A DNA stretch of 64,000 nt from Escherichia coli (GCF_030013595.1 NZ_CP122768.1), one strand, 5' to 3'; counted from the stretch's first letter, positions 50,411 through 51,310 are shown. Program-made: numbers and translations. Notes: a model not told the origin generated them from the letters alone.

Positions 50411-50875
50411 TCAATGGGGTTCTTCTGTCTCTCGGGTGAGGGTTTCCCAGTCGGCAGGAGGATGTCCTCTTTTTAACATTTTGCTGAATACGGTATAGGC
50501 ATCTGTTTTTTTACCGTAGGTGCGCAGAGTGTTTTCATCGTTCATCCATCCCAGAATGATGACTTTCTCTTTTTCACTATAACGAAAGAAGAGACGATAA
50601 CGACCAGCACCAAATTTTACCCGTGACCAGTCTTTATTTTTCCCAGAGCCTAACGACTTGCCATGACGGAATGCCGGTGATGATGGATTGACCGTGATAT
50701 GCTCCTCAATCACTTTATGGACTACCGCCAATAACTTTGTGGCGGCTTTTCTCTGATAATTTTCAGGATCTTTTCCCTTTAATGTCTCGACTTCGGCAAC
50801 TAAAGCGTCGTAGGTTTCCTGAAAACAGGGATGAGCATATAGCGCCCAACCATTAACCCTTTGTGGAAAATCCAT
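50411..50875 (-). CDS. yhaV: Type II toxin YhaV (ribosome-dependent mRNA endoribonuclease)
   Basis: 154-aa ORF matching E. coli YhaV; immediately downstream of prlF. Confidence 0.9.
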   Translation of the reverse strand: MDFPQRVNGWALYAHPCFQETYDALVAEVETLKGKDPENYQRKAATKLLAVVHKVIEEHITVNPSSPAFRHGKSLGSGKNKDWSRVKFGAGRYRLFFRYSEKEKVIILGWMNDENTLRTYGKKTDAYTVFSKMLKRGHPPADWETLTRETEEPH

Positions 50876-51210
50876 TATTCGTCGTCGCCAATCTCATCAT
50901 CAATGTTGACGTCCATGCCAGCGACAAGTTTCTTTCCTTGTTGAATGTTGAATGGACGAGTTTTTTGCGGGTTGTTCTGGATATCTGCATCCAGAAAACG
51001 CAAAAATGCATTCATAGTATGATCCTCCTGTTCATCTCCCAGTCGGCACATAAATACTTGCCCACCAGGCAGAATTTCGTAATGAATGCTGTCCTGGCCT
51101 GGCTTCAGTTTTAAGGCCTCACGCACTGGCGCGGGGATAGTTGTTTGTCCGCGTATCGTGACCTTTGATTCAGTGGTCAGTACAGCGTGAGAGCGAGCAT
51201 TAGCGGGCAT
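50875..51210 (-). CDS. prlF: Antitoxin PrlF (SohA), AbrB/SpoVT-type
   Basis: 111-aa ORF with acidic C-terminus (DDEIGDDE); its stop overlaps the yhaV start. Confidence 0.9.
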   Translation of the reverse strand: MPANARSHAVLTTESKVTIRGQTTIPAPVREALKLKPGQDSIHYEILPGGQVFMCRLGDEQEDHTMNAFLRFLDADIQNNPQKTRPFNIQQGKKLVAGMDVNIDDEIGDDE

Positions 51211-51310
51211 GATTCACTGTCCTTTTACAGCCTGTTTTCTGCTCAAATTATAAGCTTGAACTAAGGTAATGCAAATGCATTATTAATGGACGTGGGGACT
51301 TTAAACAATA

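Follow-up and report, generated by a model that had tools for sequence, protein, structure and literature searches.

The prlF-yhaV system of Escherichia coli is already known and is a textbook E. coli toxin-antitoxin pair. Its toxin arrests growth and its antitoxin neutralises the toxin (Schmidt 2007 as cited in PMC7781912). YhaV is described as a ribosome-dependent mRNA endonuclease of the RelE superfamily (PMC7781912, PMC11980606), and PrlF as an AbrB/MazE-like antitoxin (PMC7781912). According to the review that treats the complex, the target of PrlF2-YhaV4 is a palindromic stretch of the promoter that precedes prlF, and two such hexamers are reported to bind cooperatively (PMC7781912). A second review classes prlF-yhaV with the systems in which the antitoxin alone binds poorly and the toxin serves as co-repressor (PMC8138530). 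The promoter sequence is described in PMC7781912 in no more detail than as "palindromic", and the other reviews are silent on the operator. The prlF and yhaV genes are also among the promoters studied in the Reg-Seq preprint (PMC12133099), of which the accessible part gives no result for them.

In MazE-MazF and Kis-Kid (parD), a palindromic operator is positioned at the core promoter, as we predict here for prlF-yhaV, and the toxin enhances repression. By the literature, MazE and Kis are alike with PrlF in their swapped-hairpin type of DNA-binding domain, the matches of PrlF to PF04014 and TIGR01439 being weak. However, their toxins have the MazF/CcdB fold and not the RelE fold of YhaV, and the operator sequences differ. 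RelBE, YefM-YoeB and HigBA are autoregulated, antitoxin-first bicistronic operons with toxins of the RelE superfamily. The YhaV model superposes on RelE, HigB and PfiT, and YhaV is reported to cleave ribosome-bound mRNA. The antitoxins of these systems are ribbon-helix-helix, Phd/YefM or HTH proteins, whereas PrlF is AbrB/MazE-like. FitAB and VapBC need the toxin as co-repressor, as is reported for prlF-yhaV (PMC8138530), but their toxins are PIN-domain proteins and the families are unrelated to PrlF and YhaV. The K-12 PrlF(SohA)-YhaV pair (Schmidt et al. 2007, J Mol Biol 372:894) occupies the same locus as the pair studied here, which is a strain variant of it without substantive difference.

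We analysed a window of 64,000 nucleotides of E. coli DNA, and the features of the locus are collected in Table 1. The pair at 50411-51210 is the chromosomal E. coli PrlF-YhaV type II toxin-antitoxin operon. The gene identities proposed in the initial annotation were borne out by the open reading frames and by the family matches: PrlF matched Pfam PF15937 with E=6e-42 and 142 bits (cutoff 32) and the NCBIfam equivalog NF007429 with 170 bits (cutoff 125), and YhaV matched PF11663 with E=8e-54 and 181.9 bits (cutoff 35). The antitoxin stop was also said to overlap the toxin start, and this is the case, with one base shared between the prlF stop codon TAA and the yhaV start codon ATG in the junction TAATG (minus-strand GAC GAC GAA TAA TGG). 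Thus, the pair has an antitoxin-first bicistronic layout with overlapping frames, and the homologues are arranged likewise. The placement between agaR and garD agrees with the neighbouring equivalogs, which are AgaR on the plus strand (269 aa; NF040755 and NF007316) and the galactarate dehydratase GarD on the minus strand (523 aa; TIGR03248, 938 bits). It also agrees with the K-12 annotation, where the order aga cluster - agaR - yhaV - prlF - garD - garPLRK is identical. The DNA identity of the window locus to K-12 prlF/yhaV is 99.5%, and the prlF and yhaV genes annotated in 5,123 complete E. coli genomes are 97-100% identical to the window at the DNA level.

Table 1. Positions of the prlF-yhaV genes and of the sequence elements around them, counted from the first letter of the window.
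Feature	Position	Strand	Basis and details
yhaV, toxin	50411-50875	-	154-aa ORF; PF11663; so annotated in K-12 and thousands of genomes
prlF (sohA), antitoxin and autorepressor	50875-51210	-	111-aa ORF; PF15937; NF007429
Heptanucleotide repeat TTCAACA x2 (plus strand TGTTGAA x2)	50939-50952	-	inside prlF; read from sequence
Likely Shine-Dalgarno sequence AAGGA	51220-51224	-	9-13 nt upstream of the prlF ATG; inferred from sequence
-10 hexamer TATAAT of the predicted prlF promoter	51247-51252	-	consensus promoter scan
-35 region, TTTGCA (17-nt spacer) or TTGCAT (16-nt spacer)	51269-51275	-	promoter scan and homologues
16-bp palindrome TAATGCA-WW-TGCATTA, probable PrlF-YhaV operator	51267-51282		inverted repeat; cross-genus conservation
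Degenerate third half-site TCCATTA (gene orientation)	51284-51290		adjoins the distal arm
garD intrinsic terminator	51311-51336	-	10-bp stem, 6-nt loop, T-run; fold z-score -2.4
GC-rich hairpin	50364-50398		between yhaV and agaR, whose 3' ends converge; fold
Present/absent segment, about 1 kb	50353-51357		boundary alignment with the empty-site strain O18

The AlphaFold model of YhaV had a pLDDT of 81.7 and a pTM of 0.79. When it was compared with the PDB by Foldseek, it matched PfiT (E=5e-5), RelE1 of M. tuberculosis, E. coli RelE and HigB, with target-normalised TM-scores of 0.6-0.8. The predicted fold of YhaV is therefore RelE-like alpha/beta and belongs to the RelE/ParE (BECR-fold) superfamily. 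A sequence search of solved structures with YhaV found none apart from one spurious weak match, and no PDB relative of PrlF was found by sequence. The N-terminus of PrlF matched PF04014 and TIGR01439 weakly, with 19.5 bits (cutoff 24.7) and 27.1 bits (cutoff 28.3), respectively, which is below the cutoff in both cases. The PrlF monomer model reached a pLDDT of only 43.8 and was unusable for recognising a swapped-hairpin fold, the likely reasons being an intertwined dimeric fold and a shallow alignment. The assignment of PrlF as an AbrB/MazE-type DNA-binding protein is thus taken as reported in the literature.

The predicted prlF promoter has 10 of the 12 consensus positions and a perfect -10 hexamer in the promoter scan. 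Its -35 hexamer lies inside the promoter-proximal arm of the 51267-51282 palindrome, so that the coding strand reads CCATTAA-TAATGCA-TT-TGCATTA-CCTTAGTTCAAGCT-TATAAT. The -10 hexamer was unchanged across the Escherichia alleles sampled. All single-site homologues have a -10-like hexamer 15-18 nt downstream of the proximal-arm TTGCAT, and AGGTGA takes the place of the AAGGA of the window in prlF homologues. The terminator of garD, which also follows garD in Pseudocitrobacter, is positioned directly upstream of the prlF promoter and would insulate it from garD transcription. No RNA family was matched by Rfam between 50300 and 51450. At the other end of the operon, the GC-rich hairpin between yhaV and agaR may be a two-way transcription stop for both genes; this is a weak candidate, as its fold z-scores were only -1.5 and -0.65 and the U-run is not clear.

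The 7-nt arms of the palindrome (TAATGCAAATGCATTA) are fully complementary and are separated by 2 nt. It is found 57-72 nt upstream of the prlF ATG at 51210, in agreement with the initial annotation, which had placed a 16-bp near-palindrome about 60 bp upstream of prlF at 51267-51282. The symmetry alone says little. The 64-kb window contained 31 perfect 7+7 palindromes with a gap of 0-4 nt, compared with 23 +/- 5.5 in Markov shuffles, and a rough estimate of the chance of finding one in the 148-nt spacer gave p ~0.05. A 7+7 palindrome alone is not beyond chance, and the one at prlF is meaningful because it is conserved, not because of palindrome statistics. The degenerate motif, with up to two mismatches, was expected 1.8 times per window and was present in one copy only. 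We also found at least 120 occurrences of the exact 16-mer in viral contigs of about 35% GC, and none of them had a PrlF or YhaV homologue within 700 nt (tblastn and HMM searches). Since the viral copies are never near PrlF or YhaV, we regard them as chance matches, so that the motif carries information only where it accompanies the module. A literature search with the motif string returned a single match, an unrelated mouse paper.

The degenerate half-site next to the distal arm forms with it a second, overlapping palindrome, CATTA-A-TAATG. It is invariant within Escherichia and is not conserved in other genera. The abstract of the 2007 study by Schmidt reportedly mentions two bound sequences in the prlF promoter region, and the E. 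coli prlF promoter contains only one full palindrome and the adjacent degenerate half-site. Our conjecture is that these two sequences are the full palindrome and the overlapping one formed with the half-site. Two short imperfect direct repeats, at 51166-51189 and 51210-51234 (TGATTCAGTG / TGATTCACTG and TACAGCGTG / TACAGCCTG, 44-45 nt apart), link the 5' UTR of prlF to its first codons. Since these repeats (D1 and D2) are not conserved in other genera, they do not qualify as another conserved site within the 5' UTR of E. coli and are treated as probably due to chance.

The evidence for an operator comes from the relatives. Scanning a single genome of each species gave 19 loci with PrlF relatives, exact-protein look-ups added four lineages and a plasmid collection provided others besides. 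The gene downstream was a YhaV-family toxin wherever this was tested, except for a frameshifted remnant in one Enterobacter. Upstream of every prlF-yhaV homologue examined, at PrlF identities down to 42%, we found the sequence YAATGCA-NN-TGCATTR with 0-2 mismatches. The site is TAATGCATTTGCATTA in Escherichia species including E. albertii (PrlF 95-97% identical to that of the window), and the same Escherichia 16-mer is present in Pseudocitrobacter (75%) and on a 92.7-kb Salmonella plasmid with a phage antirepressor (61%). It reads TGATGCAATTGCATTA in Enterobacter sp. (67%), TAATGCAATTGCATTA in two metagenomic lineages (57-59%) and CAATG[C/T]ATTTGCATTA in nine Photorhabdus species (42-47%). In Cedecea davisae (56%) it is extended to a perfect 20-bp palindrome, GGTAATGCAATTGCATTACC. 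Outside the motif the upstream regions of different genera could not be aligned, and at least nine such lineages share the 16-mer.

An unbiased footprint gave the same result. Each 10-mer of the E. coli upstream region was counted, with up to one mismatch, in 10 non-Escherichia upstream regions. The count was 10/10 across the palindrome and at most 2 elsewhere, except at the garD terminator, which was matched by Pseudocitrobacter alone. In 50 shuffles the maximum was 3/10. The palindrome is therefore the only block of the 148-nt spacer common to all 10 regions.

Some relatives carry more than one site. A metagenomic relative (51% PrlF identity) has two sites 22 bp apart, TAATGCAAATGCATTG and TAATGCAACTGCATTA, with 6 nt between them. 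On plasmids of Citrobacter, Pantoea and E. coli, relatives with 45-48% identity carry two or three sites with 18-bp spacing that overlap a promoter; in Citrobacter the array CAATGCACTTGCATTG-ta-CAATGCACTTGCATTG-tg-CAATGCAAGTGCATTA runs into a TATACT -10 hexamer. Such whole extra 16-mer copies are not explicable as -35 hexamers and fit the reported cooperative binding of two hexamers. The plasmid arrays (L157 631-682, L158 537-570 and L159 655-688 for Citrobacter, Pantoea and E. coli, respectively) precede the annotated antitoxin start by about 190-330 nt, with a long leader containing a GC-rich hairpin in between. In two of the three plasmids the array is just downstream of an orphan vapB gene.

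On the Salmonella enterica plasmid, which is non-mobilizable (L022, L160), prlF-yhaV and a single operator-like site adjoin the phage antirepressor (ANT/KilAC). Given this neighbour, the carrier may be a phage-plasmid; the phage genome records searched contained no PrlF homologue. In Enterobacter sp. BIGb0383 (L006 3336-3810), prlF and the operator-like site are intact and yhaV is reduced to frameshifted fragments, so that this copy is an antitoxin-only remnant which retained its putative operator.

Within Escherichia, we aligned nine alleles, including the most divergent E. coli promoters (92-93% identity over 65 nt). A 24-bp block around the site, CCATTAATAATGCATTTGCATTAC, was invariant in all nine. 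SNPs were present just upstream of it, and the spacer between the -35 and -10 hexamers contained three SNPs and a 1-bp deletion. The initial annotation held that loss of the palindrome in strains which keep the module would speak against an operator; such a loss was seen in none of the sampled alleles.

Since the -35 hexamer lies within the palindrome, we considered whether the conserved block is simply the prlF -35 element with a chance symmetric extension, in which case the operator would be elsewhere, at the -10 hexamer, the transcription start or in the 5' UTR. The proximal arm does contain TTGCAT at the right distance from TATAAT, 7+7 palindromes are frequent by chance, and the two bound sequences reportedly mentioned in the Schmidt 2007 abstract could lie elsewhere. 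However, the distal arm (AATGCA) is outside the -35 hexamer and is equally conserved in lineages with unalignable flanks, the whole extra 16-mers of the relatives cannot all be -35 elements, and the 148-nt spacer is without any other element conserved across genera. We consider this explanation improbable, and part of the conservation of TTGCAT could still be due to the -35 hexamer rather than to the operator. The palindrome could also be bound by a host regulator common to Enterobacterales and not by PrlF-YhaV, as all the hosts examined were Enterobacterales or unassigned metagenomic contigs. Against this, the site moves with the module into unrelated contexts, on chromosomes and plasmids and always at the module's own promoter, so the binder is most simply one encoded by the module. 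The single motif copy in the window gives no sign of a host regulon, and PrlF-YhaV is reported to regulate its own operon at a palindromic promoter sequence (PMC7781912). A host regulator is thus very unlikely.

We give hardly any credence to the palindrome being a structural or recombination feature of a cassette end, or an RNA hairpin. In its favour, homology between different contexts starts at or near the palindrome (L004, L007), and E. coli strains differ by an indel that comprises the module. However, target-site duplications and a recombinase gene are absent, and the indel boundaries at 50353 and 51357 leave about 75 nt between the nearer one and the palindrome. An RNA hairpin is contradicted by the position of the site upstream of the predicted transcription start and by its 2-nt loop, which cannot form one, and there was no Rfam match.

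Taken together, the cross-genus conservation, the extra copies, the overlap with the -35 hexamer and the published binding (PMC7781912) support the proposal of the initial annotation that the palindrome is the PrlF-YhaV operator. The 51267-51282 palindrome is very probably the sequence bound by PrlF-YhaV, and occlusion of the -35 hexamer is the best-supported mode of repression, judging from the position of the site. We hold it to be highly probable that the prlF-yhaV operon as a whole is autorepressed via this palindrome. Transcription would start from a sigma-70 promoter (-35 TTGCAT, -10 TATAAT) just downstream of the garD terminator and would produce one bicistronic prlF-yhaV mRNA with the stop/start overlap TAATG. 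YhaV, with its predicted RelE fold, would cleave mRNA in a ribosome-dependent manner and would be neutralised by PrlF, whose reported AbrB/MazE-type DNA-binding domain is N-terminal and whose C-terminal tail is acidic. PrlF-YhaV, with the toxin as co-repressor, would bind TAATGCA-NN-TGCATTA at 51267-51282, and the bound complex would cover the -35 hexamer and block RNA polymerase. When PrlF is degraded, or is unable to pair as in frameshifted prlF1-type alleles, repression would be lost and the operon over-expressed. Such derepression is consistent with the raised expression caused by a TTCAACA duplication in prlF (PMC7686311).

Autoregulation at a palindromic promoter sequence has already been published, and in this respect our analysis has little significance beyond annotation. 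What is added is a family-wide operator consensus, YAATGCA-NN-TGCATTR, of which the core promoter contains one to three copies. Both the comparative case for the operator and the variation of its copy number among the relatives come from the present analysis and not from the cited papers. The consensus could guide footprinting, structural work on the PrlF-YhaV-DNA complex, which is still unsolved, and the annotation of PrlF-family promoters.

A population picture of the module in E. coli is likewise added. Among 5,426 complete E. coli genomes, at least 80% of the region 50300-51400 was found in 5,123 and the 100-nt promoter segment in 5,166. The initial annotation had asked whether the module is present at this site across E. 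coli or variably. Its presence at the agaR-garD site holds for about 95% of these genomes; it is not universal, since 188 of them have an identical, clean empty junction in its place, that is, one uniform empty allele. This junction consists of an unrelated spacer with its own hairpin, and the gap between agaR and garD is 51 bp (L001 2553-2623). The break falls within the final codons of agaR. AgaR, which has 269 aa and ends in ...VILVGE where the module is present, runs on for five codons at the empty site and ends in ...VILVGDHASSL (274 aa). Strains with the empty site include an NMEC O18 strain, an APEC O2:K1:H5 strain and the type strain ATCC 11775. When the empty site was aligned with the window, neither flanking direct repeats nor module remnants were found, and a mobile-element origin of the indel was rejected on this ground. 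The module is next to garD also in E. albertii, in another Escherichia species and in Pseudocitrobacter, which suggests that its presence is probably ancestral.

Other losses were also observed. In some E. coli, larger deletions removed prlF-yhaV together with the aga cluster. An IS1-bounded deletion (L021 1788-2485) left only the operator-proximal part of the spacer beside garD, and one E. coli remnant (L009) contains a 5'-truncated prlF fragment and a damaged palindrome (CCATACATTTGCATTA).

The TTCAACA repeat inside prlF varies as well. A duplication of TTCAACA 272 bp after the prlF start recurs in laboratory evolution (PMC7686311; PMC12107188). It raises prlF-yhaV expression (PMC7686311) and is the classical Lon-activating prlF1 allele (PMC12107188). 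The tract is the slippage hotspot which gives prlF1-type alleles. The copy number in natural alleles ranges from 2 to about 30, and all three reading frames are represented. Of the 5,155 complete E. coli genomes with the prlF tract, 11 have three copies, at least nine have 4-19 and the rest have two. The tract may correspond to a 7-bp MLVA locus of S. sonnei; our literature search found no link between prlF and a VNTR.

It is conceivable, if rather unlikely, that the tract is a natural contingency locus, which by slippage reversibly switches PrlF between an intact and an altered C-terminus. In that case, PrlF with an altered C-terminus would be unable to pair with YhaV at the operator and repression of the operon would be lost. 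The reported consequences, namely higher Lon activity, lower ompF expression and beta-lactam heteroresistance, would follow, and the conserved palindrome would be the readout of the TTCAACA switch. Apart from this possibility, the tract shows that a known adaptive mutation hotspot of prlF is hypervariable among isolates from nature. Between 5 and 30 TTCAACA copies are implied by protein clusters, most of which come from Shigella sonnei and some from E. coli, and 16 perfect copies were present at the DNA level in one sequence (L031 1757-1870).
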